Shown: piece by piece, positions 3,422-32,443 of the stretch
Numbering within the stretch: position 1 is the first letter of the stretch
How the letters are laid out: each line of letters starts with the position of its first letter
Origin: Thermodesulfobacteriota bacterium
Lineage (GTDB): Bacteria > Desulfobacterota_D > UBA1144 > Nemesobacterales > UBA2774
Direction of reading: 5' to 3'
NCBI GenBank assembly: GCA_965216785.1
Contig: OZ244197.1
Coordinates: 320,001-384,000, forward strand
Length of the DNA: 64,000 bases
Notes under the pieces: model-generated
What the model was told of the DNA's origin: nothing
Databases searched by the model: none
The model's input: the letters and a program-made list of their open reading frames with translations, nothing else
Position numbers and translations under genes: made by a program

Positions 3422-4423
3422 TTAATTCGCCGTGATATTCGAATCTATATTTATACTCTTAGTGAGCGCTTCAAACGCTTTATTATAGTATGTCTTCCGA
3501 TCAGGATACACTATAAAAGCTCCGACTTGGGGATGTTTCTCTAAAAATTCAATTGCCTTGTCCTTACCCATTACAAATAGTGATGTGGCGTATGCGTCGG
3601 CAAGAGTGTTATTAGCTTCCATCAATACAGTTACGCTAAGAAAATCGTTCCCGGGCTTTCCTGTTTGGGGCAAGATCAGATGGTGGTAAGTCTTCCCGTC
3701 CGAAGTGACGGTCCTTTCATAACCTCCGCTGGTAGATATTGCGAGGTCACCCGCTCCGGTCTGAAACTCTGCGATCGCGCCTTGACTGCCCGGGTCTTTG
3801 ATACCCATATTTACTTCGTGGCCGAATACCCTTATATCTCCGGAAAGAGAGACAATACCTTTTGATACTCCTTGTTCTTTTAAAGCCTCGACTGCCTTAT
3901 CTATGGCAAAACCCTTTCCTATGCCTCCCAGATCGAGCATCATACCCTCTTTTTCTAAATAAACCGTATCACCCTCGATTAAAAGGTCTTTATAGTTGAC
4001 TAGCAACTTTGCGTTTTCGATATCTTCTTCCGTAATCTTAGATTGCCGGTCTCTTCCAAAGCGGTAAACGCCTATGGTGAGCGCGCCTATGGTCGGGTCG
4101 AACTCCCCTCCGGTTTCAGTAGCTACTTGTTTTGATATTAGAAGGACCTGACTTACGTCGGGGCTTACTTTTACCGGCTGTTTACCCGCTTGCCTATTTA
4201 TTTCAGATATCTCACTTGTGGGCTTGTAGTCAGAAAGGAGATTGTCGATCCTTGCTATTTCTGAAAACGCGCGGTCTGCCTGATTATTGCCAGCGCCGTA
4301 AATAAGCACACGGGCGTGTGTCCCCATGTGATACTGCTGCCTCTCAAGCGCGGGCCCCTCTGAAAAAGCGGAAACACTTGCTAAAATAAGAATGAATGTA
4401 CAGAGTAGTGATAAAGCTTTCAT
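3422..4423 (-). CDS. apbE: FAD:protein FMN transferase (ApbE family)
   Basis: Signal peptide, MGT, FDPTIG, LDLGGIGKGFAID, STSGGYER, YHHLI..TG.P, ADAYAT. Confidence 0.93.
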   Translation of the reverse strand: MKALSLLCTFILILASVSAFSEGPALERQQYHMGTHARVLIYGAGNNQADRAFSEIARIDNLLSDYKPTSEISEINRQAGKQPVKVSPDVSQVLLISKQVATETGGEFDPTIGALTIGVYRFGRDRQSKITEEDIENAKLLVNYKDLLIEGDTVYLEKEGMMLDLGGIGKGFAIDKAVEALKEQGVSKGIVSLSGDIRVFGHEVNMGIKDPGSQGAIAEFQTGAGDLAISTSGGYERTVTSDGKTYHHLILPQTGKPGNDFLSVTVLMEANNTLADAYATSLFVMGKDKAIEFLEKHPQVGAFIVYPDRKTYYNKAFEALTKSINIDSNITAN

Positions 4424-4560: not shown

Positions 4561-5943
4561 ATGATTATTCAATGCAGCAGGTGCAGCCGAAAGTTTAAAA
4601 TCGACAATTCCAGAATCAAGCCTGAGGGCAGTAATGTCAGATGCTCTAAGTGCGGTCATATATTTATAGTTAAAAGAGGGGAGCCTGTACTTGGCCATGA
4701 TCCGCTTACCGAGGAGCCTGAAAAGGTATCCCAAACTGATATCAATCAAGATATAAACATTGAGAAAATCCCTGTAGACACAAGAGTTGAAGAGAGTTTT
4801 AGTGAAACCAGCTCAGTTGAGGACGTCGATATCGGCCGAGATGAGATTGCTCAGCCCGAGGAAGTTCCCACGGAGCTTGGAAGAGATATGCCTGATGATG
4901 ATCAGCTGGACATTGAGTTTGATCATGTACATAAAAACGCCGAGAATTGGGAAGAGTTTGTAAGCATAAGTAAGACCGGGGGGCATAGCGAGGATATTGA
5001 GACAAGCGAGAGTGGGGTGAGTGAGAAGGAGCAAAACGACTTTAGCTGGGAGAATATAAATATAGAGGAAGAGCCTGAAGATCAGAGCCCCGATATTCCA
5101 CAGATGTTTGAAGACGAAGAGGATACGAGTCCCCAAGAGCCAGAAGATGCTGAAGAGGCCGAAAAGAATATAGCCTCTCAAGATAAAAGTGAATCTGACG
5201 GTTACGAGTATCAAAAAGGGTCAGCCGAGAAGCTTACCCTAGATAGGGAGTCTCCCGATAAGTATATGGATAGTGAGGGAGAGTTTGGGCAAGTAGAGCA
5301 AAGAACTGTTCACCGTAGGGCAGAATATTACGGGTCACAAGGTAAATCAAAAAAAGGCTTTTTAGGAAAAATTGTATCTACACTTATGATAGCAGCCGTT
5401 TTTGTCATAATTATTACAGCCAGTATTACTATATTGATTAACCTCGAGCTTATACCGGAGGAGAATGTAAGCAAGGCTAAAACCCTGGTTGAGTCGGTAC
5501 TGCCGATTAAGCTCACGGCAGAGAAAACCCGTGATATCGTAATTACCCAGCATAGCGGCAATTGGATGAATACCAGGTTCGGACCGCTGTACGTGATATC
5601 GGGAATGATTAAAAATATATCTGATCATCCGATTCATTACATACAGATAAGAAGCGAGTTTGTATCGGCAGGGAAAACATTATACGAGGATACAATCTAC
5701 GCAGGCAATACGTTTAGTGATAATGAGCTTAAGGTTTCGAAAGTTGAAGATATAGTCTTCAAGCTCAAAAAGAAAAACGGCGATATAGACTACTACGATA
5801 TGAAAAAGCTCTCAGGCCTGAATTACGACGTTAAGCCGGGGGAGTCTATACCGTTTTTCGCTGTTTTCCCCTATGACAGCACTGTTTTGGGCTTAAAATA
5901 TAACCTTGAAGTAGTAAATTACGAAGATTCTACGATCAATTAA
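4561..5943 (+). CDS. MJ0042-type zinc-ribbon membrane protein with acidic linker and DUF3426-like periplasmic domain
   Basis: N-terminal CSRC-x19-CSKC ribbon, long D/E-rich low-complexity linker, one TM helix (IVSTLMIAAVFVIIITASITILINL), C-terminal LYVISGMIKN...VKPGESIPFFAVF. Confidence 0.8.
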   Translation: MIIQCSRCSRKFKIDNSRIKPEGSNVRCSKCGHIFIVKRGEPVLGHDPLTEEPEKVSQTDINQDINIEKIPVDTRVEESFSETSSVEDVDIGRDEIAQPEEVPTELGRDMPDDDQLDIEFDHVHKNAENWEEFVSISKTGGHSEDIETSESGVSEKEQNDFSWENINIEEEPEDQSPDIPQMFEDEEDTSPQEPEDAEEAEKNIASQDKSESDGYEYQKGSAEKLTLDRESPDKYMDSEGEFGQVEQRTVHRRAEYYGSQGKSKKGFLGKIVSTLMIAAVFVIIITASITILINLELIPEENVSKAKTLVESVLPIKLTAEKTRDIVITQHSGNWMNTRFGPLYVISGMIKNISDHPIHYIQIRSEFVSAGKTLYEDTIYAGNTFSDNELKVSKVEDIVFKLKKKNGDIDYYDMKKLSGLNYDVKPGESIPFFAVFPYDSTVLGLKYNLEVVNYEDSTIN

Positions 5944-18712: not shown

Positions 18713-20053
18713 ATGACTAAATATGCGATTATCATAATAAGCGCGCTTTGCTCAGTGGCTCTATACCAATTCGCGCCTATTGATAAGAACGTTTTGAAAG
18801 GGCTTTCGATACTGCTGTTCATAGCTGCCCTATGGCTGACCGAAGCCCTTCCGATTACGGTCACAGCGCTGATAGTGCCGGTGCTGGCTGTTATAACGGG
18901 TATTTTCAACGTTAAAGAGGCTCTGAGCTACTTCGCGCACCCGATAATATTCTTGTTCCTCGGAGGTTTCGGACTGGCGGCGGCCTTGCACAAGTACAGC
19001 TTGGACGAGCTTTTCGCCGGCTATATAATGAAAGCCGCCGGCACGAAAATGCTGTACTCGATACTAGGGCTATTCGTATCAACCGCGGTTCTGAGCATGT
19101 GGATAAGCAACACGGCGACGACCGCTATAATGCTTCCCGTTGCTCTCGGACTTATAGCGAGCCTTAAAGAAAAGAACGCGGCGAACGAAACTTTCATTCT
19201 GCTCGGGGTCGCTTACTCGGCCAATATCGGCGGTATAGGAACCATAATAGGAAGCCCGCCGAATGCCATAACCGCAGCGAACCTGGGCCTTAGCTTCAGC
19301 GAATGGTTAAGTATCGGAATTCCAGCCGTATTGGTACTGTTCCCCGTGATGATAGTAGTACTCTATTTCAAATTAAGACCAAGGCTTCCGGAAGTAAGAA
19401 CGGTCCGTAAAACAACAGTGGAGCTAGTATTCAGTAATCCTAAGAGTTATAAGGTCGCGGCTATATTTGCAATCACCGTGCTACTGTGGTTATTTAGCAA
19501 ACCCCTCTCATCACTCTTGGGGATAGAAAAGAATTTTGACTCGCTTATCGCTGTGTTCGCGATAGTGTTACTTGTGCTTTTCAGAACTATCAGGTGGAAG
19601 GAGGTGGAGCGCTTTACGGACTGGGGGGTGCTGCTCTTATTTGGCGGGGGACTCGTGCTGAGCGGAGTATTGGGAGAGACGGGGGCGAGCAGATACCTTG
19701 CAGGGATAGTCGAATCCGGCATGTCCCACTACGGTCTATTACTTTTGCTCTTGGGTTCAGTAACACTAATGATTTTCTTGACGGAGTTTGCGAGTAACAC
19801 GGCGAGCGCGGCGATTATGGTACCTATATTTCTGACCCTCGGCCAAGAGCTTTCACTCGCCTCGCCTGATGTGCTGGCTCTGAGCGCGGGGATAGCGGCA
19901 TCATGCGCTTTTATGCTCCCGGTCGCGACACCGCCAAACGCGCTGGTTTTCGGAACGGAAAAGATAAAACAGCGGACAATGATAAAAACGGGCCTAGTAC
20001 TAAATATAATATCGGCGCTGATTATAGCCGTTATGGCCTATTTTATAATCTAA
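18713..20053 (+). CDS. DASS/SLC13 sodium:dicarboxylate (or sulfate) symporter
   Basis: FAHPIIFLFLGGF, two SNT motifs (WISNTAT, FASNTAS), GSPPN, FMLPVATPPN. Confidence 0.92.
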   Translation: MTKYAIIIISALCSVALYQFAPIDKNVLKGLSILLFIAALWLTEALPITVTALIVPVLAVITGIFNVKEALSYFAHPIIFLFLGGFGLAAALHKYSLDELFAGYIMKAAGTKMLYSILGLFVSTAVLSMWISNTATTAIMLPVALGLIASLKEKNAANETFILLGVAYSANIGGIGTIIGSPPNAITAANLGLSFSEWLSIGIPAVLVLFPVMIVVLYFKLRPRLPEVRTVRKTTVELVFSNPKSYKVAAIFAITVLLWLFSKPLSSLLGIEKNFDSLIAVFAIVLLVLFRTIRWKEVERFTDWGVLLLFGGGLVLSGVLGETGASRYLAGIVESGMSHYGLLLLLLGSVTLMIFLTEFASNTASAAIMVPIFLTLGQELSLASPDVLALSAGIAASCAFMLPVATPPNALVFGTEKIKQRTMIKTGLVLNIISALIIAVMAYFII

Positions 20054-20076
20054 ACAGCAGAGAATCAAAGAGTGCA

Positions 20077-20346
20077 TTACTGCTTGGTAAGCTTATGGGG
20101 ATTACGGTACGGGCATGAGCGGTCGCTGCACCTGTCGGGGATTATTTTCGTACCTTTCTACCATTAGTGAGCCGTGCAGTACTCACTGTTAGGCCTTGAG
20201 TCTACCCAGAAATTACATTCTTTTTCCCTGCACTTGTATACAGGGCCGAAGCGGCCCCTTACGGGATTTAATTCTCCCCATTTGCAATCAGGACATGTAA
20301 CCCCGGTTGGAGTCAGCTCTGTGAATTTACAATCTTCTTGTGCCAT
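20077..20346 (-). pseudogene. Disrupted topoisomerase-type C4 zinc-finger protein
   Basis: CPDC...GRFG..YKC...C finger; in-frame TAA and TAG, then the same frame resumes KGTKIIPDRCSDRSCPYRNPHKLTKQ*; the bridging segment reads GSLMVE in a shifted frame. Confidence 0.6.
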
Positions 20347-20434
20347 TATCGAGACCGTCTCATAACATGATTTATCTTACTTATTGTATTATAGATGCGG
20401 CGGCACAAAATTGGTTTCGCATACTTGTCTGCAA

Positions 20435-21235
20435 CTACCAGCTTAGAGTGAACATCAACCCTGAAGACTGTCCGTCGGTAAAAGGCAAAACGGTAAATCT
20501 GTTTCCCTTTTTATTTTTGTGCACCTTGGCTACTCCCCTTCCGATGGCCGTGCCGAGCGCCGCGCCGAACAGTACGTCGGATAGAAAATGTTTGTTATCG
20601 GAGATTCGGGACAGCCCTACAAACCCGGCAAAAGCGTAGAGCGGGATACCGATTTTATGACCGTACATTGAATCTACGGTAGCGGCGAGAGCAAAGCTGC
20701 CTGATGTGTGACCCGAAGGAAACGACGAGGTAAAACGCGTGCCGCTGCCGTCAGGTCTCTCTCTACCTACTGTAAGCTTGAGCACACTTGTGCTGAAGGC
20801 TGTTAAAATATTCGCCTCAAAAAGAGCCTTTGCCGTCTCTATAAGTTTCTCATCGCCAGAGCTGGAACCTATTAAAAATAAAGCAGTATTGATACCGGCG
20901 AGTGTGAGTGCGTTTCCGCCTATATCACCGATATCACCGAATTTACCTAAAGAGTTATTCAGACTATCCTGGATTTCTCGGTCGGCATCTGTTTGGGAAA
21001 GCAGTAGAGACGCCCCCGTAGCAGTGCCTAAAATAGCGAGGTTCCAGCCCCTAAATGTATTACTCGCGCCGAGAAGTAGGTTTTTAGGAAGGGTCTGGGT
21101 TAAGTAAGTCTTATAATTTTCTTCTCCCGATTCTCCGTACTCAAGCTCCTCCGCTGAAGAACCCGGCAAGAGTAGAAAGATATATAGAGAAATTGCGATT
21201 AATAGCTTTACAATAAAATGCAGTGCTGTCTGCAC
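20435..21235 (-). CDS. PAP2 family phosphatase with N-terminal signal (start probably GTG 21235 or later)
   Basis: C1 KLTVGRERP, C2 SFPSGH, C3 SRISDNKHFLSD all intact; the ORF-track start at 21295 lies upstream of the predicted -10. Confidence 0.85.
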   Translation of the reverse strand: MQTALHFIVKLLIAISLYIFLLLPGSSAEELEYGESGEENYKTYLTQTLPKNLLLGASNTFRGWNLAILGTATGASLLLSQTDADREIQDSLNNSLGKFGDIGDIGGNALTLAGINTALFLIGSSSGDEKLIETAKALFEANILTAFSTSVLKLTVGRERPDGSGTRFTSSFPSGHTSGSFALAATVDSMYGHKIGIPLYAFAGFVGLSRISDNKHFLSDVLFGAALGTAIGRGVAKVHKNKKGNRFTVLPFTDGQSSGLMFTLSW

Positions 21236-21270
21236 TATATGATCTATAGTAGCCGCCCCCCTAGAGAACC

Positions 21271-21324
21271 AGAGTAAAGAGCCACTATTACACAATCATT
21301 ACGTGAAAATTACATTACTGTAAT
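21271..21324 (-). promoter_or_regulatory. Response-regulator operator/promoter, copy A (PAP2 gene)
   Basis: Minus strand ATTACA-GTAA-T-GTAAT-TTTCAC-GTAAT-GATTGT-GTAAT-10 bp-TACTCT. Confidence 0.7.
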
Positions 21325-21495
21325 ATTCAGGATATTTACCGTTAAATGATAGAATGAGGAATTATAATATAGTAGAATCATAATATATTAGGGTTAAGTA
21401 TCTTACTCCTATGCGTAAGTAATGACGGTAACTTAAGATTACTTTTTACAGCTGTAATTGAGATTCAACGATGGCGATGGGCTAGAGCGGGCTAA

Positions 21496-22785
21496 ATGAT
21501 GAAAATCAACTATAAGGTGCTTTCTATCATGACAGTCTTTATATTTTTACTCTTGCTTCCTACCGAATCCTACGGACAGGCGCGCAAAGCCCGTTCGGAA
21601 GGCTTTGACCCAAACGAACCCCCGGAGACAAGGTTTAAAATTGCCCCCTACCTTACGTTCGGAGCTCAGATTGAGGTTGAGTATAAGCTCGACAGGAACG
21701 TGGACCTGGACGGCTCTACAGATGAAGACCTTTCCACAATAGAGCCTGAAGTGAATCTTGCTTTCTCCTTTGATCCGTTCAGCTTCCTTCAGGTGTTCGC
21801 GAACTTTAAGCTCGGCTTGGAATTTGAGATAGAGGACGGCCGGAAACAAAAAGACCGCTCGGTGTTTGAAGTCGAGGAAGCCTATCTTTTTCTAAAAGAT
21901 TTATTTGATGACAGGTTTTCACTTCAAATCGGACGTCAGCAGTTTGATGACGAAAGACAGTGGCTTTATGACGCAGAGCTTGACGGGGTTAGAGCTTTTA
22001 TTTTGACTTATGGCGTTGTTACCCAGCTTTCCGTGAGCCGGGGCGGTCTCGTAAATAGGGATCTTTTGAGAGAGAGCGCCGGTGACAAGATAAATAACTA
22101 TATTGCTTATTCGACTTATTTCTTTAACGAGGATACAAACGTGGCGGCATACTTTGTGGCCCGTGATGATACCACGGGTGAGAACGACAGCCCTATATTT
22201 ATCGGGATTCACTCTGACGGAGAGGCTACTGACAGTCTGGATTACTGGATAGAGCTTGCCTATGTGACAGGGGAGGAAGGTACGAATAATTTAAGTGGGT
22301 TCGGGTTTGATATAGGTACGGTTTACGCTTTTGACACCTTGCTCGAGCCCTCAATTACGCTCGGATACGCGTTTGGGACCGAGGAATTCCGTCAGACGGG
22401 GCTTCAGAGTAACGAAGGGGATTTTAATGGTGTGGTTGATTTCCTTTATTACGGAGAGCTGTTTGACCCGGAGCTTAGCAATCTTTCTATATTGACAGGG
22501 GATGTAGGAATTCTTCCTACTGAGGAAACCTCTATTGACCTCGTATATCACTACTACTTTCAGACTGAGGCTTCGGATGAAATTAGGGAATCAACACTTG
22601 AAGCCGAGCCTGACGGAGTGAACAAGAGTCTTGGGAGCGAGATCGATCTGATACTCGGGTTCGAGCAGAAAAGTGAAAAAATCGCGGCTGCTTTATCTTT
22701 TGGATTCTTCTTTCCAGGAAGCGCTTTCCCTAATGACGCTGTGAACGCTTTTTCAACAAAACTTATTCTGTCGTATGAATTCTAG
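21496..22785 (+). CDS. Outer-membrane beta-barrel, alginate export (AlgE)-like porin
   Basis: Signal peptide, amphipathic strands, LQIGRQQFDDERQWLYDAELDGV, YGELFDPELSN, LGSEIDL, C-terminal YEF. Confidence 0.8.
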   Translation: MMKINYKVLSIMTVFIFLLLLPTESYGQARKARSEGFDPNEPPETRFKIAPYLTFGAQIEVEYKLDRNVDLDGSTDEDLSTIEPEVNLAFSFDPFSFLQVFANFKLGLEFEIEDGRKQKDRSVFEVEEAYLFLKDLFDDRFSLQIGRQQFDDERQWLYDAELDGVRAFILTYGVVTQLSVSRGGLVNRDLLRESAGDKINNYIAYSTYFFNEDTNVAAYFVARDDTTGENDSPIFIGIHSDGEATDSLDYWIELAYVTGEEGTNNLSGFGFDIGTVYAFDTLLEPSITLGYAFGTEEFRQTGLQSNEGDFNGVVDFLYYGELFDPELSNLSILTGDVGILPTEETSIDLVYHYYFQTEASDEIRESTLEAEPDGVNKSLGSEIDLILGFEQKSEKIAAALSFGFFFPGSAFPNDAVNAFSTKLILSYEF

Positions 22786-22842
22786 CGAAATAAGTTTAAG
22801 TAGGCTTGCGTATGAATAAAAAATGTGTAAGAAGGTTAAATT

Positions 22843-23517
22843 ATGCGGGTATTGGTTATAGAGGACGATAAAAAGATAGCCTCCTTTATTAATAAGGGCT
22901 TAAAACAGGCGGGATTTGCGGTAGACCACGCCGAAGATGGAGAGGAGGGTCTGAGCCTGGCGCTTCATGAGTCATACGACGCAGCAGTTGTAGACATCAT
23001 GCTTCCTAAGCTAGACGGGCTGAGCGTTATAGAAGAGCTGAGGAGAAGCAAGGTCAATACCCCCGTAATAATACTCAGCGCAAAACGCTCGGTGGACGAT
23101 AGGATCAGGGGGCTTGAAAGCGGGAGCGATGACTATCTTACAAAGCCGTTTTCGTTCTCAGAGCTTCTGGCACGCATATACGCACTTATCAGACGGGCGA
23201 GCGGGGCGGCTGAATCGACACGACTGAGCGTCGGCAGCCTTACGATGGACATACTCAACCGCGAAGTCATAAGAGATGATAAGAATATAAATCTGCAGCC
23301 GCGGGAATTCACCCTTCTCGAATACTTTATGCGGAGCGCCGGGCGGGTGCTTTCGAAGACCCTCATAATGGAGCACGTATATGATTATAACTTCGACCCG
23401 CAGACCAATGTCGTGGACGTGCTAGTTTGCAGGCTCCGTAACAAAGTGGACAAAGGATTTGAAAAGAAGATGATCCATACCATAAGAGGTGTTGGCTATG
23501 TTCTTAAAGAACCCTAA
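22843..23517 (+). CDS. OmpR-family response regulator (CusR/CzcR-like)
   Basis: IEDD, DIMLP, GSDDYLTKPF, wHTH TNVVDVLVCRLRNKVD, TIRGVGY. Confidence 0.95.
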   Translation: MRVLVIEDDKKIASFINKGLKQAGFAVDHAEDGEEGLSLALHESYDAAVVDIMLPKLDGLSVIEELRRSKVNTPVIILSAKRSVDDRIRGLESGSDDYLTKPFSFSELLARIYALIRRASGAAESTRLSVGSLTMDILNREVIRDDKNINLQPREFTLLEYFMRSAGRVLSKTLIMEHVYDYNFDPQTNVVDVLVCRLRNKVDKGFEKKMIHTIRGVGYVLKEP

Positions 23518-24883
23518 ACTGCTCTTTAAATCAAACAGCTTCAGGATGATAACGTGGTACACGGTGTTCTTTGTCCTGAGCTCCCTTATTGTAAACATCT
23601 ACGCATACTCGGTGATATCTAAATTTATATATGAGCAGAGTAGAGAGGAAGTAGGGGAGGATATAGAGGAGCTAAGGGATATATATCTGGAAAGCGGCAC
23701 TGAGGCGCTTCATACAGAAGTGTTTGAAGACGCGAACGACCCTTTCATAGTACGAATGGTCACAAAACAAGGGGATACGGCGCTGCTGAGAATCCCGCAA
23801 GATTGGGAGGGCGTTAACCTTGCGCAAATGGATCAAACACTTTACTCCCAGTATACACAGTGGGCATATCTTACAGAAAGCGGGATGGAGGAGCGGATTG
23901 AGTTTGCGACTCTAGGAGTATCGGATGGCTCGATATTACAGATCGGACAAGAAATTGACGCAAGAGAAGACCTCTTGAGCCGTATACGCCGGGTATACCT
24001 CTTTTCTCTGATTCCTATCCTGGTCCTTGGCTATTTAGGCGGGCTGTTCGTAGCCGACCGTGCTCTTAACCCTGTCAGACAGCTCATATCTACGCTCAAT
24101 TCCATAGTGGAAAGCGGGAAAATGAACGTCAGGGTACCAGTGCCTGAGACCGATGAACTGTACAGAGAGCTGATATCGCTCTTTAACACTATGCTCAGTA
24201 AAATAGAGACCTTGGTTAACGGAATGAGGGGAGTGCTGGATAATGTTGCGCACGATTTGAGGACGCCGATGACAAGATTTAGAGGCACTGCCGAGGTAGC
24301 GCTCGCGTCAGAGCAAAATGGGGAGACGCTACGCGAGGCCCTGGTTGATTGCGTTGAGGAATCTGAGCGAATCTTAATAATGCTGAATACTCTGATGGAC
24401 GTCTCGGAAGCGGAGACGGGAGCCATGAAGCTTAACCCAGAAAAGATGAACGTGACTCCGCTTATTGAAGACATAGTAGACCTCTACGACTATGTTGCTG
24501 AGGAAAAAGGCGTTACTGTCAAAACCGGCTTCCCGGAAGAGATTTATCTCACAGCCGACCGTAACCGTTTGCGCCAGGTGCTGGCAAACCTGCTTGATAA
24601 CGCCATTAAGTACACACCTGCCGGAGGGAGAGTAGACGTCGAAGCCAGCCGGGAAGACAAAGAAGTAAAAATCACGATAAAAGACACCGGGGTCGGCATA
24701 TCCGACAAAGAGCTCGACAACATTTGGGACAGGCTTTACCGGGGCGATAAAAGCAGGACTCAAAGAGGGCTCGGCCTCGGGCTTAGCCTGGTCAAAGCTA
24801 TCGTCGGGGCTCACAGGGGATACGTCGAGGTCCTGAGCAAGCCCGGCTCGGGCTCGGTATTTTCAGTACACTTGCCTGCGTAA
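23498..24883 (+). CDS. HAMP-domain sensor histidine kinase (start ATG 23498)
   Basis: Two TM helices, HAMP, H-box VAHDLRTP, NLLDNAIKY, DTGVGI, GLGLGL; overlaps the end of the regulator gene. Confidence 0.95.
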   Translation: MFLKNPKLLFKSNSFRMITWYTVFFVLSSLIVNIYAYSVISKFIYEQSREEVGEDIEELRDIYLESGTEALHTEVFEDANDPFIVRMVTKQGDTALLRIPQDWEGVNLAQMDQTLYSQYTQWAYLTESGMEERIEFATLGVSDGSILQIGQEIDAREDLLSRIRRVYLFSLIPILVLGYLGGLFVADRALNPVRQLISTLNSIVESGKMNVRVPVPETDELYRELISLFNTMLSKIETLVNGMRGVLDNVAHDLRTPMTRFRGTAEVALASEQNGETLREALVDCVEESERILIMLNTLMDVSEAETGAMKLNPEKMNVTPLIEDIVDLYDYVAEEKGVTVKTGFPEEIYLTADRNRLRQVLANLLDNAIKYTPAGGRVDVEASREDKEVKITIKDTGVGISDKELDNIWDRLYRGDKSRTQRGLGLGLSLVKAIVGAHRGYVEVLSKPGSGSVFSVHLPA

Positions 24884-24924
24884 AGTAGCCTTTCAGATTG
24901 TTTCTACTATCTCCACCCTGAATT

Positions 24925-24978
24925 ATTTCAAAACCGTAATGTTAGGGAAATATTCCCGTAATCCTCTCCTGATAGTCT
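24925..24978 (+). promoter_or_regulatory. Response-regulator operator/promoter, copy B
   Basis: ATTTCA-AAAC-C-GTAAT-GTTAGG-GAAAT-ATTCCC-GTAAT-10 bp-TAGTCT (with TG extension). Confidence 0.7.
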
Positions 24979-25008
24979 GTATGTAAAATCTAAATCAGGA
25001 GGTGTTTT

Positions 25009-25815
25009 ATGAGACGTATAAAGGCGTTTGGGTTTATTTCCGACGGTTTTAGAATGCGGGGGCGTATCGGGTTATTTGCTCTACTTTTGGCGGCGGTATT
25101 CGTCATGGGTCTCTCAGGAACCGCTGAGGCATTTGAAGACGCCGAGGTTAGGATCGAGACAAATTCCACCGATGGAGACTCCGGACTTCAGCTCTTTTTT
25201 GACGGAGAGCCATGGAAGAGAACCATAGTCAGGGGACCTGACGGGCGTATCGTATTTTGGGTTACCAACCTAGGGAAGCTGAGGAGATTCGGCACTACCG
25301 AGAATTTTATGGAGAGTAACGAGCCTAACTACGAGGAAGAAATGACCCTGCCCGAGATCCTCGAGTTTTTACCCGCGGGTGAATATAAGTTCCACGGTAG
25401 AACTGTCGACAACGAAAAACTATTTGCTACAGCGACATTAACTCATGACTTACCGTGCGGACCCGTAGTTACCTCGCCTGTATCACCGGATCCGGAAGAA
25501 GACCCTGAGCTGGACCCGAGCATGCCGGTAATTTCGTGGGAGGCGGTAGTGAACAAGATCGATACGGAATCTGATTTCGGGGAGTGCGATGAAGCAGACT
25601 TTGATATTACTGTCACCGGTTACGAGGTCGTGGTAGAAAATGAGAGCACAGACCCCACGGAAACGTTCACTATAAAACTTCCGGCGGGAGTGCTTCAGGT
25701 AACGCTTCCTCCGGAATTTGTTATCCCCGGCGATGATTATAAATTCGAAATACTCGCGATCGAGGAAAGCGGGAATCAGACAATAACTGAAAGTAACTTT
25801 ACGGCTATTGAATAG
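25009..25815 (+). CDS. Secreted acidic hypothetical protein, C-terminal FN3-like beta sandwich
   Basis: Strong RBS AGGAGGT, signal peptide ending AEA, ISWEAV...GYEVVVE...YKFEILAIEESGNQT pattern. Confidence 0.8.
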   Translation: MRRIKAFGFISDGFRMRGRIGLFALLLAAVFVMGLSGTAEAFEDAEVRIETNSTDGDSGLQLFFDGEPWKRTIVRGPDGRIVFWVTNLGKLRRFGTTENFMESNEPNYEEEMTLPEILEFLPAGEYKFHGRTVDNEKLFATATLTHDLPCGPVVTSPVSPDPEEDPELDPSMPVISWEAVVNKIDTESDFGECDEADFDITVTGYEVVVENESTDPTETFTIKLPAGVLQVTLPPEFVIPGDDYKFEILAIEESGNQTITESNFTAIE

Positions 25816-25844
25816 CCAATAAATTGAATAGCCCCTTTAAGGGT

Positions 25845-25904
25845 AAAGGGACCTCTCTTAACAGTATTGTTGCTGGAAGGGCAGCGGAGGGAGAGGTCCC
25901 CTTT
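25845..25904 (+). terminator. Hairpin / possible terminator or structured RNA after the 25009 gene
   Basis: GGGACCTCTC (25848-25857) pairs with GAGAGGTCCC (25891-25900), with an inner GTTGCT/GGCAGC stem. Confidence 0.5.
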
Positions 25905-25976
25905 CATATTGATTGCCAGCCCTAATATCTAAATGCTTTTAAACACAGCCCACCTTCTCTCTCATTATATATTTAC

Positions 25977-26010
25977 CACCCCGGCCACACCTTCCCCATC
26001 GGCCGGGGTG
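25977..26010. repeat. Perfect 10-bp GC-rich inverted repeat
   Basis: CACCCCGGCC-14 nt-GGCCGGGGTG. Confidence 0.7.
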
Positions 26011-26056
26011 TATCCCCGAGAAAGAGGTTTGGATTGCGTATGAAATGTGCAGGTTC

Positions 26057-26110
26057 CTTTCCGTTTTGTAATGATTGTGAAAGATTCGCGTAATTCTAGT
26101 TTGCTATTCT
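26057..26110 (+). promoter_or_regulatory. Response-regulator operator/promoter, copy C
   Basis: CTTTCC-GTTT-T-GTAAT-GATTGT-GAAAG-ATTCGC-GTAAT-10 bp-TATTCT (with TG extension). Confidence 0.7.
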
Positions 26111-26145
26111 GCAATTAAATTCAAGTTTACAGAGGAGGTATTAGT

Positions 26146-26871
26146 ATGAAGCGTTTAATTAGCCTAACGGCTTTATTGGTAACTATATCTATTCTGTCCA
26201 TTGGCGGCTGCAGCAGCAGCGGGGGCGGGGGAGGTAACAACGGGGGATGTCCTGAAACAAACACGAGTATAGCTGTCTGTGACCCGGAGACCGGAGTGTT
26301 CTCATTAACCATAGATAACGGTTTCTTCCCCCTGGTCGTGGGCGATGAGCTGGTGCTCGAAGGCGAGGACGATGAAGGCACTTTCATTGAGATTATTATT
26401 ACAGTTCTTGATGAGACGGAAGTAGTTGCCGGGGTAACCACAAGGGTTGTGGAGGAAGCAGAATTCGAGGATGGAGAAATGGTCGAGGTCTCAAGGAATT
26501 TCTTCGCTCAGGCCCAGGACGGCACCGTTTGCTACTTCGGTGAAGACGTGGACGATTTTGAGGACGGGATGATAGTCGGGCACGAAGGGGCATGGCGTGC
26601 CGGAGAGGACGGGAACCTGCCGGGAATAATTATGCCGGGGAATCCACAGGTCGGCATGGTGTTTAGTCAGGAAGTAGCGCCCGGCATAGCCGAGGACCAG
26701 GCCGAGATACTGCTTTTCGGCGAGACTATTGACGTGCCTGCAGGAGAGTTCAGTGATACGCTTACCACACTTGATTGTAACCCGCAGGAGAACGGCTCTA
26801 CAGATGAAAAGGTTTACATAAGAGGAATCGGGCTTGCTATCGATGAAGATGCAGAGCTCGTATCCTTTTAG
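26146..26871 (+). CDS. Acidic lipoprotein of unknown function
   Basis: RBS AGGAGGT, lipobox IGGC followed by a Ser/Gly tether; IDNGFFPL, FAQAQDGTVCYFGEDV, GAWRAG, PGIIMP, VPAGEF. Confidence 0.82.
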   Translation: MKRLISLTALLVTISILSIGGCSSSGGGGGNNGGCPETNTSIAVCDPETGVFSLTIDNGFFPLVVGDELVLEGEDDEGTFIEIIITVLDETEVVAGVTTRVVEEAEFEDGEMVEVSRNFFAQAQDGTVCYFGEDVDDFEDGMIVGHEGAWRAGEDGNLPGIIMPGNPQVGMVFSQEVAPGIAEDQAEILLFGETIDVPAGEFSDTLTTLDCNPQENGSTDEKVYIRGIGLAIDEDAELVSF

Positions 26872-26910
26872 ATTGACTATTAAAAACAATCATCACTCTA
26901 AACCTCTTAT

Positions 26911-26950
26911 TGGGCGGTGAGAACAGGTAAATCCCTGCATTCACCGCCCA
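26911..26950. terminator. Inverted repeat between convergent genes
   Basis: TGGGCGGTGA-20 nt-TCACCGCCCA. Confidence 0.55.
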
Positions 26951-26954
26951 CTTT

Positions 26955-27383
26955 CTATTCCGCTTTATTGATCTCGGCAAGCTCGATGAGGACTCCGTTC
27001 ATCGCCTTTGGATGGATGAACGCCACCCTTGAGTTGTAGGCGCCCGGCCTGGGGGATTCGTCTATGAGTCTTACCCCCTGATCTTTAAGTCTATTCAGCA
27101 CAGCCTCGATATCGTCTACGAGATAACAGATGTGGTGGATACCCTCCCCTCTCTTATCCAGAAATTTAGATATGGGGGAGTTATCGTCTAAAGGCTCTAG
27201 AAGCTCGATTGCGGTGCCGCCTTTTTCCGGCACAAGCATGGAAGTCTTTACGCCCTGGTCTTCAACAACCTCACGGTGCTCTACTTTAAGACCCAGAGCG
27301 GTCTCGTATATTTTTTCTACCTGCTCAAGGTCTCTTACAGCTATCGCGACATGATATAGATTTTCAAGTATTCCTTTATCCAT
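26955..27383 (-). CDS. mce: Methylmalonyl-CoA epimerase
   Basis: HVAIAV, QGVK, IELLEP, GEGIHHICY, FIHPK..NGVLIEL. Confidence 0.92.
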   Translation of the reverse strand: MDKGILENLYHVAIAVRDLEQVEKIYETALGLKVEHREVVEDQGVKTSMLVPEKGGTAIELLEPLDDNSPISKFLDKRGEGIHHICYLVDDIEAVLNRLKDQGVRLIDESPRPGAYNSRVAFIHPKAMNGVLIELAEINKAE

Positions 27384-28048: not shown

Positions 28049-29170
28049 TTATTGATAGCCGGTGAGCTCGACGTAGCCGCTTCCGGATGTACCGCTGCCT
28101 GAAGCACTTACGGCTCCTTCCCAGTAGACGAACGAGAGATTAAGCTCCTGGTTGGGCTGATAGGGCACGACTGTCAGATCAATCCCATATTCCGGAATAG
28201 ACACCTGCCACTTTGAGGGATAGGTGACACCTGTTTCAGGACTCTCCCAGGTACTGAGGACTTCTATATTGAACTCCGAAGCCTCAAGAGCTATTGTCGA
28301 ACCATCTTTTTCTATCAGTGTGCCGGCGGAGTGAGTATCAATAGAGCCGTCTTTTTTTCTTAGCTGATAGAGCATAATTTCACGCCCGTCATCGAGCTGA
28401 ATGGAAAACCAGTCCCAACCCTCTAGTTTTTCACTAAGTGCGCTCGTGCTCCATTCACGGTCGAGCCAGCTGAGTCCCTGCACTTCAAACTCACTACCGT
28501 CTACTTTGATACTTCCCTCTGTTTTAATGCGTGTAACTGAGTAGTAATAAGACGCGTTACCGGGCTCACTGCTCTTTTGACTAAGACCACGGTCGCCCTG
28601 GAGAACAAGGGGCTTTAGGGACTCTAGTGTCAGATTAATTGAGAAATCAATATCGCTTGCTGTAAGCTTGATTACGTCCCTTTCTTTAGTAGAATTCCAG
28701 TCCTTGATCCATACGCGGTGGGGATCGGCCTTTGCTCCGGCAAGCCCAAGCGCCGCCCTACTCCACCTTTCAGCGCTGTAGAATTTCTTGTTCTCTATAT
28801 CGCTTACAGTGAAGTGCGCGAAATAAATCTGGTTTGCCGCCCAAGCAGATTCCCTCTCTATATTATCGGGGGTTAAAGCTCTCCTGAAAAAGGTAAGCTG
28901 GTAACCGAAGCTGCGGCCTGAGCTGTCCTCTAAATTGCCGGTGTAATACCACCATTCGGTTTGATACCCAGGGTGCGGGCCCGAATCCTCAGGGAACTTA
29001 AAATTCCTTACTTCCTGAGCCCTCTTAAAACCTGGATGTGGCTCGCCTGAGAGGGTGCTTGAAAAGTCAGTGCGACGCTCCTTTTCCGGCTCAGCCCAGG
29101 ATAGTAAGATGAATGGACCTGTAAAAAAAGAGAGAATTAAAATGAATGCGACTATGTATCGTTTTTTCAT
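28049..29170 (-). CDS. AttH / CrtC-like double lipocalin-domain secreted protein
   Basis: H..YQTEWWY, GYQLTFFR, YYYS, WLDREWS, GWDWF, YWEG, GYVELTGY. Confidence 0.9.
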   Translation of the reverse strand: MKKRYIVAFILILSFFTGPFILLSWAEPEKERRTDFSSTLSGEPHPGFKRAQEVRNFKFPEDSGPHPGYQTEWWYYTGNLEDSSGRSFGYQLTFFRRALTPDNIERESAWAANQIYFAHFTVSDIENKKFYSAERWSRAALGLAGAKADPHRVWIKDWNSTKERDVIKLTASDIDFSINLTLESLKPLVLQGDRGLSQKSSEPGNASYYYSVTRIKTEGSIKVDGSEFEVQGLSWLDREWSTSALSEKLEGWDWFSIQLDDGREIMLYQLRKKDGSIDTHSAGTLIEKDGSTIALEASEFNIEVLSTWESPETGVTYPSKWQVSIPEYGIDLTVVPYQPNQELNLSFVYWEGAVSASGSGTSGSGYVELTGYQ

Positions 29171-29181
29171 AATAAACCTTT

Positions 29182-31737
29182 TTACTCCTCCCTTAATAAA
29201 GCGGCTGTGTCTTCCCGGTCTATTACAAGAGCCGGATAAACTCCCGCAGCTAAAGCCGCTATAACGGATACTGCAATCCCCTCGACGAAGAACCTAGGCT
29301 GAAGCGTGAGATCGATAGTCCATCCGAAAGAGCGGAGATTTACCACATAAATGAGTAAATACGAGAGCAGAAGACCCACTGGGATGGAGAGCAATCCTGC
29401 TGTGAGGCCAATGAGGGCATTTTCTAAAAATGTCATTTTTCTTAACTGCGCCACCGTCATTCCGATTGCCCTGAGCATGCCGAACTCCTTTACCCGTCCA
29501 AGCTGAAGGGCCATGAGTGAGCTAAGGACACCTATGAACGCAACCACCACGACTAGAATCCTGAGCGCTCCCGTGACCTTAAAAGTGCGGTCAAATGTAT
29601 TTAAGGCGGACTCTTTGAGAGCATAGTTGGAACGGACGCGGACATTATATTTTTGAGATAATTCATTTGTGAGCTCCCGCGCTATTTCTGCCGGGTCTTG
29701 CCGCGAGACAACATTTGCCGCAAGAGAATTAATCAGCGCATCGTCCCATAAAGAACGATATACAGTATCCGACATCAGGACGACCCCTGTTTGATAGCTG
29801 TAATCATAATAAATGCCAGCGACTTTAAACTCCCTGTACCCATTGTCAGTAAGAAGCTTGACGGTATGCCCAGGGCCGGGCTGAATGTTGTTTCTATATG
29901 CGAATGATTCAGAGACCAAGACCGAGTCCTTAAGAAGTTTCTGCCAAATCTGTGCCGGGCTTCCCTCGCTCCATATGAATTTTTTATTCTCAGACGCTAT
30001 ATCCTCTGTTACGGCGAGCAGGTTGAAGGGTCCGTACTCGGGACTCGTAAGCCTTAGTCTCCTGGCCGTAGCAACATTATCTATGCCGGGGAAACCGGCA
30101 ACTTCAGAGAAAATAGCGGGATCAAGCCCAATATTGCTGCTTACGTTCTGCGAAGCTGCGGAAATGAAAATATCTGCGTTAAGCGTGCCCTCGAGCCAGC
30201 TTACAACTGTGACCCTGAAGCTCCCTATCATAATCCCTACGCTCAGTATGACCGAAACAGCAACTGTGAGTGAGGCAATGGCAACACCTGTGCGGCTTAG
30301 TGAGCGTACAACATTGAGTGGAGCCATTTGAGCGATAACCCCGATAGAACCGCCAAGGTATGAAAAGAGATTCATTAACACTCTCGTAATGAGAGGGACA
30401 AGAAGGGAAGAGCCGAGGAGTATTAAGAACACAGAGACGAGGCCGAGGCCAAGGCTATCTGAAGGAATGTATATAAGCAGTAAGCCGGTAGCGATTAAAC
30501 CCGCCCCGGCAAAACTTAAAGGCTTAAGTGACTTAAGCACCAAGCTTTCCAATGTGGACCGGGACAGAGCGCCCGCCGGTTTAACACGGGAAGCCTCGTA
30601 AGCGGGAACAACGCCGGCAATAACCGATGCTACTATCCCAAGCAGTAAACCTTTTATCATAGTATAGGGTGATAGGGTGAAATCTGTAACCGTGAGTGTG
30701 AAGTAGAGGTCGTTTATAGTGCTCGTAACGAGGCCGAGAATCCCCCTTCCCATAAAAGCGCCGAGAAATAAACCCAAAATACTTCCGATGATTCCCAGTA
30801 TGAGGGTTTCGACAAGGACCGTTTTAAAGACCTCGGGGCCTGTGACGCCGAGCGCGCGAAGCACGGCGAATGTGTGGCGTCTTGAGAGAACCGAGAATAT
30901 GACGGCGTTATAAATAAGGAATAAGCCCACAAAAAGAGCGAGCAGGCTGAGGGTCATCAAATTGAGCTCAAAAGCCCTGGTCATACTCTCGGCTGATTTA
31001 GACACCTGATCGATGCGCTCGATATCCATGCCTTCAGGCAAAATATCTTGTATGAGGGCAAGACTGAGACTGCCCTCTGATGACTTGTCATCTAGAGAGA
31101 GATCAATGTGTGTTAGCAGGCCGCTCTTATTCAAAAGCTCCTGCGCCGTCGATATATCGCTGATTATAATTCCGTCAAGATCAATTGCCCCGGCACTTCT
31201 ATCGGGTTCTATAAAGCCGATTATCCGAACTTTTTCACTCATAGAGCCGTAGGTGATCTGGAGCTGATCCCCTTTGCTTATTCCTTCACTATCTGATAGG
31301 GACTTGGGTAAGAGAACAGCGCCTGGCGCAGTGAGTAATGAAGAGAAGGTTTCCGGCGGCAGGTCCTGATCTAAAATACTTTCACTTGAATTTGAGCTCG
31401 AGAAGGGATCGATGCCGATAAGCCTAAGAGCGCGCCCGTCAAGAGCAGGGACGTTAATATAATCTTCGACGTAAGGCAGGACATTACTTACGCCCTGTTT
31501 TATTAGATCGACATATACACCTTCTTCGACACTGCCGTTTCTCCCGGTTATACGGTGTGTGGCACCTTTGGAAAACGCCTCGGTGCTGATTGAAAACGAT
31601 AGCGCCGCGCTCTTGTTCGCGAGATCTACAGAGGTTACAAGCGCTACGCCAAGAGCGATTCCGAGAACGAGCAGAAAGCTCTGGAGCGCGTGTTTTCTTA
31701 TATAGCTAAATCCGACTCCGAGTAAAGTAAGATTCAT
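29182..31737 (-). CDS. FtsX/MacB-type ABC permease (AttF/G-like, duplicated architecture)
   Basis: Two MacB_PCD+FtsX halves; LGIALGVAL, LRALG, LRAIG, NLRSFGWT. Confidence 0.9.
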   Translation of the reverse strand: MNLTLLGVGFSYIRKHALQSFLLVLGIALGVALVTSVDLANKSAALSFSISTEAFSKGATHRITGRNGSVEEGVYVDLIKQGVSNVLPYVEDYINVPALDGRALRLIGIDPFSSSNSSESILDQDLPPETFSSLLTAPGAVLLPKSLSDSEGISKGDQLQITYGSMSEKVRIIGFIEPDRSAGAIDLDGIIISDISTAQELLNKSGLLTHIDLSLDDKSSEGSLSLALIQDILPEGMDIERIDQVSKSAESMTRAFELNLMTLSLLALFVGLFLIYNAVIFSVLSRRHTFAVLRALGVTGPEVFKTVLVETLILGIIGSILGLFLGAFMGRGILGLVTSTINDLYFTLTVTDFTLSPYTMIKGLLLGIVASVIAGVVPAYEASRVKPAGALSRSTLESLVLKSLKPLSFAGAGLIATGLLLIYIPSDSLGLGLVSVFLILLGSSLLVPLITRVLMNLFSYLGGSIGVIAQMAPLNVVRSLSRTGVAIASLTVAVSVILSVGIMIGSFRVTVVSWLEGTLNADIFISAASQNVSSNIGLDPAIFSEVAGFPGIDNVATARRLRLTSPEYGPFNLLAVTEDIASENKKFIWSEGSPAQIWQKLLKDSVLVSESFAYRNNIQPGPGHTVKLLTDNGYREFKVAGIYYDYSYQTGVVLMSDTVYRSLWDDALINSLAANVVSRQDPAEIARELTNELSQKYNVRVRSNYALKESALNTFDRTFKVTGALRILVVVVAFIGVLSSLMALQLGRVKEFGMLRAIGMTVAQLRKMTFLENALIGLTAGLLSIPVGLLLSYLLIYVVNLRSFGWTIDLTLQPRFFVEGIAVSVIAALAAGVYPALVIDREDTAALLREE

Positions 31738-31753
31738 GATTAGTTAACTGTGC

Positions 31754-32443
31754 TTAGTTACCAGATACCCGGACGAGGCTCCCTTTCTCAATGCTGTAAA
31801 CTGTGTCTCCCCGGCCCGCTATTTCACCGCTGTGCGTTGCAATTATCATTGTTTTCCCGGACTTACGCTGTATCCCTAGCAGCAGCTCAAGGACCTCTTT
31901 TGAAGTCTCCGTGTCGAGGTTTCCGGTAGGCTCGTCAGCCAGGATCAGCGCAGGGTCGTTGATGAGAGAGCGTGCAATGGCGACACGCTGCTGCTCTCCA
32001 CCCGAGAGAACATCGGGGTAGGAATCGGCCCTATTTTGAAGACCGACCATGCCTAAGAGAATGAGTGCTTTATCAAAGCTATCTTTCCTTGGCTGCCCTG
32101 TAAGCTCGCTTGGAAGAGATACGTTTTCTATCACGGTAAGAGTGGGGATAAGATTAAAAAACTGAAAGATAAAACCTATCTGATCCCTTCTAAGAAGTGT
32201 GAGCTCGTTCTCTGTAAGGCCCGAAATATCTTTGCCGTCAATTTCAATACGTCCGCTGTCGGGTGAATCGATTCCTGAAACAAGGTTTAGAAACGTAGTC
32301 TTCCCGGAGCCGCTTTTTCCAAGCAGTACGACAAGCTCCCCGGCTGGGATTTCCACGCTTACGTCATGGAGGATATTGACCCGGTTTCCGCCCTCTTCAT
32401 AGAATTTGCATAGACGATCAAACCGTAATATCGGTTTCTTCAT
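31754..32443 (-). CDS. ABC transporter ATP-binding protein (LolD/AttE-like)
   Basis: [28 protein letters not shown]. Confidence 0.95.

Follow-up and report, generated by a model that had tools for sequence, protein, structure and literature searches.

Operators that join an inverted repeat to direct repeats have been published for the regulators AgrR and LciR. In the AgrR box of the Cupriavidus metallidurans AgrRS system, direct repeats lie in phase with an imperfect 6-4-6 inverted repeat of the ATTACA type. Both kinds of repeat contribute to binding and to the activation of promoters whose -10 is good and whose -35 is poor (PMC7380067). The LciR element of Legionella LciRS consists of ATTACAAnnTTGTAAT and two short elements that precede the -10 at a precise distance. 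This design is described as common to many CusR-like systems, the short elements have been proposed to set the direction, and three of four mutants of the element lost induction, the fourth keeping very little (PMC6989116). Here we describe three predicted operator-promoter sites of this class, A, B and C, in a 64,000-nucleotide stretch of DNA from an uncultured, Dadabacteria-like bacterium (contig OZ244197.1, positions 320,001 to 384,000; the whole stretch is called the window), together with an adjacent OmpR-family regulator that, judging from comparison with relatives, is likely to bind them. A first reading of the window, made from its letters alone (the sequence-only reading), had located the three sites, and an exact check of the window found each at the same string, strand and coordinates:

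Operator-promoter A, 21271..21324, minus strand: ATTAC (21324-21320), N6, GTAAT, N6, GTAAT, N6, GTAAT (21291-21287), N10, TACTCT (21276-21271); predicted start at about 21264-21262.
Operator-promoter B, 24925..24978, plus strand: ATTTC, N6, GTAAT, N6, GAAAT, N6, GTAAT, N10, TAGTCT; predicted start at about 24985.
Operator-promoter C, 26057..26110, plus strand: CTTTC, N6, GTAAT, N6, GAAAG, N6, GTAAT, N10, TATTCT; predicted start at about 26117.

The identical spacing claimed for the three copies also held. All are 54 bp long, with 5-bp half-sites at offsets 0, 11, 22 and 33 and a TAnnnT hexamer at offset 48; half-site 1 is inverted, half-sites 2-4 are direct, and 10 bp separate half-site 4 from TAnnnT. 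Site A forms a perfect 6-4-6 palindrome, ATTACA-N4-TGTAAT, which is imperfect in B and C, where the proximal half is better preserved. The sequence-only reading had further stated that A and C share a sequence exactly. The 12-mer GTAATGATTGTG is indeed common to both, but it lies in different registers, at offsets 22-33 in A and 11-22 in C, and is therefore no positional identity. Site A faces a gene for a PAP2-family phosphatase and points away from a porin-regulator-kinase operon, and sites B and C precede two unannotated genes, here called B and C. The sequence AGGAGG is found at 24997-25002, downstream of site B, and GAGGAGG precedes the ATG at 26146, downstream of site C.

Allowing up to 2 mismatches, the pattern GTAAT-N6-GWAAK-N6-GTAAT-N10-TAnnnT has 3 matches in the window, where 0.01 would be expected, and 0 of 100 shuffles reached 3; without mismatches it occurs at these 3 sites only in the whole genome (3,118,197 bases). 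This pattern is post hoc, and a matrix derived from relatives is the better test. Such a scan, which the sequence-only reading had proposed, was performed with 38 sites from relatives and none from this genome (not included were two palindromes read in reverse and a site of locus L044 whose first half-site is poor). Sites B, C and A scored 52.2, 44.3 and 39.8 bits, respectively, and the next best position in the 3.12-Mb genome scored 10.9 bits. With the consensus pattern, 17 of 41 genomes gave 38 matches in all, and 28 of 120 genomes of the phylum gave 54 (gene context of the 16 extra matches checked only in part), with 0 matches for the reversed control in both scans. Orthologues of gene B are present in 13 and those of gene C in 20 of the 41 genomes, and of the 17 loci fetched, 16 have the same four-half-site architecture upstream of B/C orthologues. 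In the remaining locus, L045, B and C are present but the DNA retrieved contains no regulator. Five matches of the 41-genome scan lie outside the first loci: two before PAP2 genes, one before a distant paralogue of C and two just after a kinase gene. The motif is thus neither as frequent in random DNA as in the window nor lost upstream of orthologues, the two outcomes that the sequence-only reading had named as speaking against it. Its view of the sites as a local regulon stands, with the motif nowhere else in the genome and kept upstream of orthologues in other families: the predicted regulon is local, with occasional satellites.

Within the relatives' sites the residues G-n-A-A at offsets 22 and 33 are present in 36-38 of 38, and the -10 hexamer is kept (T in 36, A in 33 and T in 34 of 38). 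A mirror relation between half-sites 1 and 3 of the window copies (ATTAC/GTAAT, ATTTC/GAAAT, CTTTC/GAAAG) failed in the relatives and was rejected. The 12-mer common to A and C and the AT-richness of the region might suggest that the sites resemble each other by chance, or by local duplication of a promoter fragment, and have no regulatory meaning. This possibility has virtually no probability left: the 12-mer registers differ, the spacers diverge while half-sites and spacing are preserved across families, shuffled and reversed controls are as given above, and conservation upstream of orthologues already refutes it. Together these comparisons indicate that the three sites are real, conserved and very likely functional. 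As a separate observation, in L056 an operator (5635-5688) follows a kinase fragment and has no long open reading frame (ORF) behind it; the C/T-rich stretch found there instead may mark a small RNA or the loss of a gene.

How do these sites compare with described operators? As at the AgrR box, an ATTACA-N4-TGTAAT core is accompanied by further elements toward the -10, which mutagenesis showed to be needed there, and the proximal half of an imperfect repeat is better kept, as in B and C. The AgrR core differs in position, with its centre at -43.5 on AgrR's own promoter and a little more upstream on the others, and direct repeats accompany it at some operators only (PMC7380067); here both downstream half-sites are always present and the centre stays near -52. 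The LciR element likewise has an inverted core and two further elements toward the -10 (PMC6989116). The Escherichia coli cusR promoter has the same offsets, the -10 at 48 and the same -10 hexamer as copy A, and the core of E. coli hiuH equals the copy A consensus, in agreement with the likeness to CusR/HprR-type boxes proposed by the sequence-only reading. In cusC, hiuH and copA1 of plasmid pMOL30, too, a 16-bp palindrome is combined with 11-bp-phased half-sites, the -10 lying at 49, 1 bp further; in cusC and hiuH, unlike here, the fourth half-site is degenerate. The motif of Pseudomonas CzcR has been given as GAAAC-N6-GTAAT, and the same study describes a single palindrome from which two divergent operons are served (PMC11195947). 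Caulobacter UzcRS resembles the present system in its half-site, CATTAC-N6-TTAA, which precedes the start by 43 or 53 bp, and in a U/Zn/Cu-responsive regulon mostly made up of secreted or membrane proteins of unknown function; UzcR differs in being a global regulator with dozens of sites, where the regulon here is local (PMC8963506). The likeness to AgrR and UzcR is one of operators and, for UzcR, of the regulon. The novelty that the sequence-only reading had implied for a hybrid inverted-plus-tandem operator did not survive this comparison: because the inverted-plus-direct design has been published for AgrR and LciR, it is not new, and the operator belongs to the known AgrR/LciR/CusR-type class.

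When our matrix was applied to two 50-kb stretches of pMOL30, the top matches included sites before czcE and copA1, at low scores. The best match in the czc region (L150, 29446-29499, minus strand; 25.3 bits, good -10) lies just upstream of a P-type ATPase gene at 29605 but faces away from it.

The same comparison bears out the earlier description of the direct repeats as PhoB-like, since the last two half-sites, with their 11-bp period, stop 10 bp short of the -10, exactly the distance seen at E. coli phoA. One might therefore regard the sites as a plain PhoB-like tandem array of three direct half-sites in which the inverted half-site 1 is incidental, and half-site 1 is in fact imperfect in B and C and most variable in its first base (A in 24, C in 14 of 38). 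All 38 sites, however, agree in its T, T and C positions, the 11 divergent copies linked to a porin gene without exception have a perfect ATTAC there, and mutation of the inverted repeat abolished activation in AgrR (PMC7380067) and LciR (PMC6989116), so we consider a plain tandem array very unlikely. PhoB operators also differ in that the half-sites here are of the GTAAT type rather than GTCAT/GTCAC and that an inverted repeat is added upstream.

The proteins that would act at these sites are encoded between A and B:

Response regulator of the OmpR/PhoB family, likely binder of the sites, 22843..23517, plus strand: PF00072 and PF00486; TIGR01387 at 270.2 bits.
Sensor histidine kinase, 23498..24883, plus strand: ATG at 23498 in an ORF that opens at GTG 23489; acidic periplasmic domain of about 125 amino acids.

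The models of the heavy-metal subfamily are the top matches of both proteins despite scores below the cut-offs (regulator, 270.2 against 279.2 for TIGR01387; kinase, 215.3 against 292.55 for TIGR01386). The regulator is 45-50% identical to CusR, HprR, CopR1 and CzcR-type proteins and 37% identical to PhoB (TIGR02154 190.9, cut-off 296.2), and a search of solved structures returned general OmpR members only. In a careful tree of 19 rows, which omits 16 of the 35 rows of a quick tree (AgrR, LciR and UzcR are in neither), it falls in a separate clade (91/94) beside that of CusR, CopR1, CzcR and HprR (100/98). A joint clade with these four was not rejected (p-AU 0.447), pairing with HprR alone was rejected (p-AU 0.022) and pairing with CzcR alone was borderline (0.060). 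Besides this separate position, the system differs from those of the four regulators in that no copper/zinc efflux or oxidase genes are found beside the regulator; the predicted targets are the PAP2 gene, the porin gene and the two unannotated genes.

Sensor and motif occur together. The N-terminal half of the kinase, which holds the sensor domain, was found in 15 of the 41 genomes, all 15 with the motif, and in none of the 24 genomes without it; in the 2 motif-only genomes (of 17) the site lies near a contig end. Regulators of the same clade are also accompanied by sites in more distant replicons: on a Paraburkholderia plasmid (72% identity; site of 42.4 bits before a PepSY gene), on a Vibrio plasmid (53%; 18.2 bits, before an HbpS-like gene), in a Desulfobacterales record (66%; 33.8 bits) and on a Rhizobium plasmid, where a 26.2-bit site lies beside the regulator gene. 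These data suggest that the adjacent regulator is likely to bind the three sites. Some points weigh against this reading: the matrix sites were chosen by a rule seeded with the window consensus, which makes the test not fully independent; related genomes are non-independent samples, so that the counts describe a pattern and are not a test statistic; and a Paracoccus plasmid (L066) with a same-clade regulator has no site of at least 15 bits.

Could a different, genome-wide regulator, for instance the PhoB-like paralogue G000:C1:831830, bind the sites, the adjacent pair being a mere neighbour? Cross-regulation at shared sites has been described for CusR, CopR and CzcR (PMC11195947) and for HprR and CusR (PMC8249747), and the downstream geometry equals that of a Pho box. 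A genome-wide regulator would nevertheless have to be reconciled with a genome in which no other position exceeds 10.9 bits and with the absence of the motif from all of the 24 genomes that also lack the sensor, and a PhoB-like paralogue with half-sites unlike the GTCAT/GTCAC found at phoA. Apart from the regulator itself, the genome has a single full-length OmpR-type match, which is 33% identical to it and groups with PhoB. We regard this alternative as highly improbable.

The sensor domain gives some indication of the signal. In the 14 domains that were parsed there are 26-35 Asp+Glu, 0-2 His, 0-3 Met and 0 Cys, with no conserved His, Met or Cys, whereas CusS has 9 His and 7 Met. The conserved acidic residues of the domain include those in the stretches EQSRxExxED and EVFED. 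Because of this composition, copper or silver sensing appears unlikely; zinc stays possible because CzcS is also His-poor (2). LciS differs in sensing copper via His and Cys in a 28-amino-acid loop, and LciR in having one target (PMC6989116). The signal would most likely be a metal cation or envelope stress, with copper and silver the least likely among metals.

The predicted targets are the following:

PAP2-family phosphatase, target of site A, 20435..21235, minus strand: PF01569, E 9e-18; start codon uncertain.
Gene B, target of site B, 25009..25815, plus strand: signal-peptide-like N terminus (by eye), two predicted beta-sandwich domains.
Gene C, target of site C, 26146..26871, plus strand: predicted lipoprotein with a conserved GGC lipobox, predicted open beta-barrel.

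We hold it probable that regulator 22843, switched on by kinase 23498, activates the PAP2 gene, genes B and C and probably its own operon via the sites. In this scheme the kinase would sense a signal, probably a metal cation or an envelope signal, and switch on the regulator, one dimer of which would sit head-to-head on the palindrome (half-sites 1 and 2), its centre near -52, as the comparison with AgrR, LciR and PhoB suggests. The in-phase direct half-sites 3 and 4, which flank and overlap the -35 position and stop 10 bp short of the -10, would take up further subunits. These would stand in for a -35 by recruiting RNA polymerase and would give activation its direction, and expression of the phosphatase, the secreted beta-sandwich protein and the beta-barrel lipoprotein would be raised. 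The most speculative part is that the signal may be a cation, other than copper or silver, read by carboxylates, and that the acidic targets and the phosphatase may buffer or remodel the envelope.

Since the array covers the -35 position, the regulator might instead bind but mainly repress, the array blocking polymerase until the signal removes the regulator. Related regulators do repress at some promoters, CopR at pcoA2 (PMC11195947) and CzcR at oprD (PMC7380067). There is, however, little basal promoter to repress: the would-be -35 of the three promoters matches TTGACA at 0-3 of 6 positions, and a consensus sigma-70 scan gave 8 sites, against 9.0 in shuffles, with none of promoters A, B and C among them. 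In addition, the same geometry activates in AgrR (PMC7380067) and LciR (PMC6989116). Repression as the main effect is therefore very improbable in our judgement, and activation remains the preferred reading.

The sequence-only reading had suggested that the palindrome of site A may also drive the divergent operon that begins with the porin gene. Two features are relevant here:

Outer-membrane porin of the alginate-export family, first gene of the regulator operon, 21496..22785, plus strand: PF13372, E 2e-34.
Predicted promoter of the porin-regulator-kinase operon, 21350..21378, plus strand: -35-like TAGAAT (21350-21355), 17 bp, -10 TAGAAT (21373-21378); predicted start at about 21385.

The -35-like hexamer is TAGATT in most relatives, and the conserved form of the promoter is TAGAWT-like, 17 bp, TARAAT. 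In 11 porin-first loci its -10 lies at a nearly constant distance from the palindrome start, 64 bases in 10 of them and 63 in the other, which places the centre of palindrome A near -68 from the predicted start. Mean identity over the 25 bases that precede the -35 is 42%, and leader length ahead of the porin gene ranges from about 52 to 151 bases (8 loci measured). The outward TAnnnT is present in all 3 loci that keep PAP2 and in 0 of the 8 without it, and all 8 of the latter keep the palindrome and both downstream half-sites. That the array persists where PAP2 and the outward -10 are gone favours a role in the regulator's own operon. Thus, a conserved promoter at a fixed distance and an array retained beside a decayed outward -10 speak for this part of the earlier reading; universality is what it lacks, because in L042, L120 and L064, where the regulator comes first, a search of the 400 bp upstream of its gene revealed no palindrome. 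Autoregulation is further called into question by the 6 of 8 loci with a decayed outward -10 in which a co-oriented gene might be driven by a shifted -10, and by LciR, which is not autoregulated (PMC6989116). On balance, site A probably also serves the porin-regulator-kinase operon, and autoregulation through the perfect palindrome near -68 of its promoter would most likely be positive.

Additional half-site-like words (GTAAT, GTAAC, ATTAC, TTAC-AGCT-GTAA) are present in the porin leader at window positions 21430-21460, out of the 11-bp phase. In six loci that lack PAP2 (L035, L037, L038, L041, L075 and L076) the next co-oriented gene beyond site A looks, by eye, like one for phosphoenolpyruvate carboxylase. 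The rearranged locus L078 (6779-10063) has a single operator heading lipoprotein, porin, regulator and kinase genes in one orientation, a layout that would give positive autoregulation.

As to the target proteins, the catalytic motifs of PAP2 enzymes, KxxxxxxRP, PSGH and SRxxxxxHxxxD, are intact in the phosphatase. The longest ORF of this gene (TTG 21295) overlaps site A; the real start is therefore expected downstream, GTG 21235 being the first candidate. The proteins of genes B and C have no Pfam or NCBIfam match, and both are acidic (49 Asp+Glu against 14 Lys+Arg in B; very acidic in C, with 48 against 5). The model of protein B (pLDDT 96.7) has a fibronectin-III-like C-terminal domain, its best structure match (Z 11.3, root-mean-square deviation (rmsd) 2.3, 95 aligned residues) being tied with many FnIII rows. 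For protein C (pLDDT 96.9) the best match was the Parabacteroides lipoprotein 4fvs_A (Z 10.6, rmsd 4.0, 167 aligned), followed by 6ntr_A (Z 9.9, rmsd 3.7). For neither fold was a single solved structure clearly ahead of the rest. The two families are widespread, with 228 and 4714 homologues. In the Atlas they fall into unnamed clusters only, and the hints at a family are weak: fn3 appears on 39% of one cluster, a DUF3108-like assignment on 12%. Where distant homologues of gene C have no such regulator beside them, a site is almost always missing, the one exception being a weak match of 19.4 bits (L144). Homologues of gene C often stand in tandem, without the operator, in Gemmatimonadota, Actinomycetota, deltaproteobacteria and one archaeon (L094, L095, L096, L101, L136, L138, L141, L144), and some of them adjoin other OmpR-type regulators or gene B homologues.

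The remaining features of the region concern its RNA level and its surroundings:

Hairpin with T-rich tail after gene B, 25848..25901, plus strand: possible terminator between B and C.

No Rfam match was obtained in window 20000-27000 at E up to 1. Further downstream (28049-32443, minus strand) a gene with a CrtC/lipocalin domain lies behind ABC-transporter-like permease and ATPase ORFs, and no operator was found there.

In relatives the regulon additionally includes an RND pump behind PAP2, a DUF4390 protein and further lipoproteins, and the targets there and in the window all point, by their predicted features, to the cell envelope. In a genome of the same order (L055, 527-6403, minus strand) the operator heads PAP2, outer-membrane factor, adaptor and RND permease genes, an arrangement reminiscent of agrABC; the permease scores below the multidrug and CusA/CzcA cut-offs (438.5 against 701.45 for CusA/CzcA). 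In L057 (6085-7125, minus strand) a ligand-gated ion channel-like gene (sub-cut-off) lies just behind PAP2.

A fourth operator copy is present between genes B and C in L036, L049, L051, L069 and L040. In these five relatives a conserved 44-codon ORF starts 8-9 nt past the -10 with ATG, or ATA in L040, a position that fits a leaderless start and thereby supports the -10 assignment. The product, encoded at 4093-4224 (minus strand) in L036, has an MKK start, one hydrophobic helix and a basic tail, and no Pfam match; the ORF was not found in the present genome (best E 0.13). Its layout recalls feedback peptides such as MgrB. In the window, a C/T-rich stretch with a hairpin (25950-26012) resembles the C/T-rich stretch of L056 and one that follows the 44-codon ORF in some relatives.

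No paper on the system of this lineage was found by title or abstract start in a literature search that is thin on subscription journals. Among the homologues that carry a name, the closest bear the label Thermodesulfobacteriota or Candidatus Dadabacteria. What is new is the uncultured Dadabacteria-like lineage, a regulator clade apart from CusR, HprR and CzcR, an acidic sensor domain and uncharacterised targets. A bolder proposal, which we advance as a speculation more likely wrong than right by a good way, is that the pair founds an undescribed OmpR subfamily, ranging from Dadabacteria-like bacteria to proteobacterial plasmids, whose carboxylate-rich domain would sense a hard cation (calcium, ferric iron, lanthanide or uranyl) and switch on acidic periplasmic binding proteins and a PAP2 phosphatase that together trap the metal in the envelope as phosphate, with the leaderless 44-residue membrane peptide from the fourth operator copy acting as a feedback brake in one genus.

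As the operator design is known, the result will strike a specialist as tidy rather than surprising. It provides a well-defined predicted regulon and a 38-site matrix for an uncultured lineage without regulatory data in the literature searched, and it ties two widespread unannotated protein families to what would be one inducible envelope response. The clean four-half-site array would be a good substrate for studying the way in which a single regulator of the OmpR type binds half-sites of both arrangements, inverted and tandem, within one promoter, and the system would gain in importance should a hard cation turn out to be what the acidic sensor reads.

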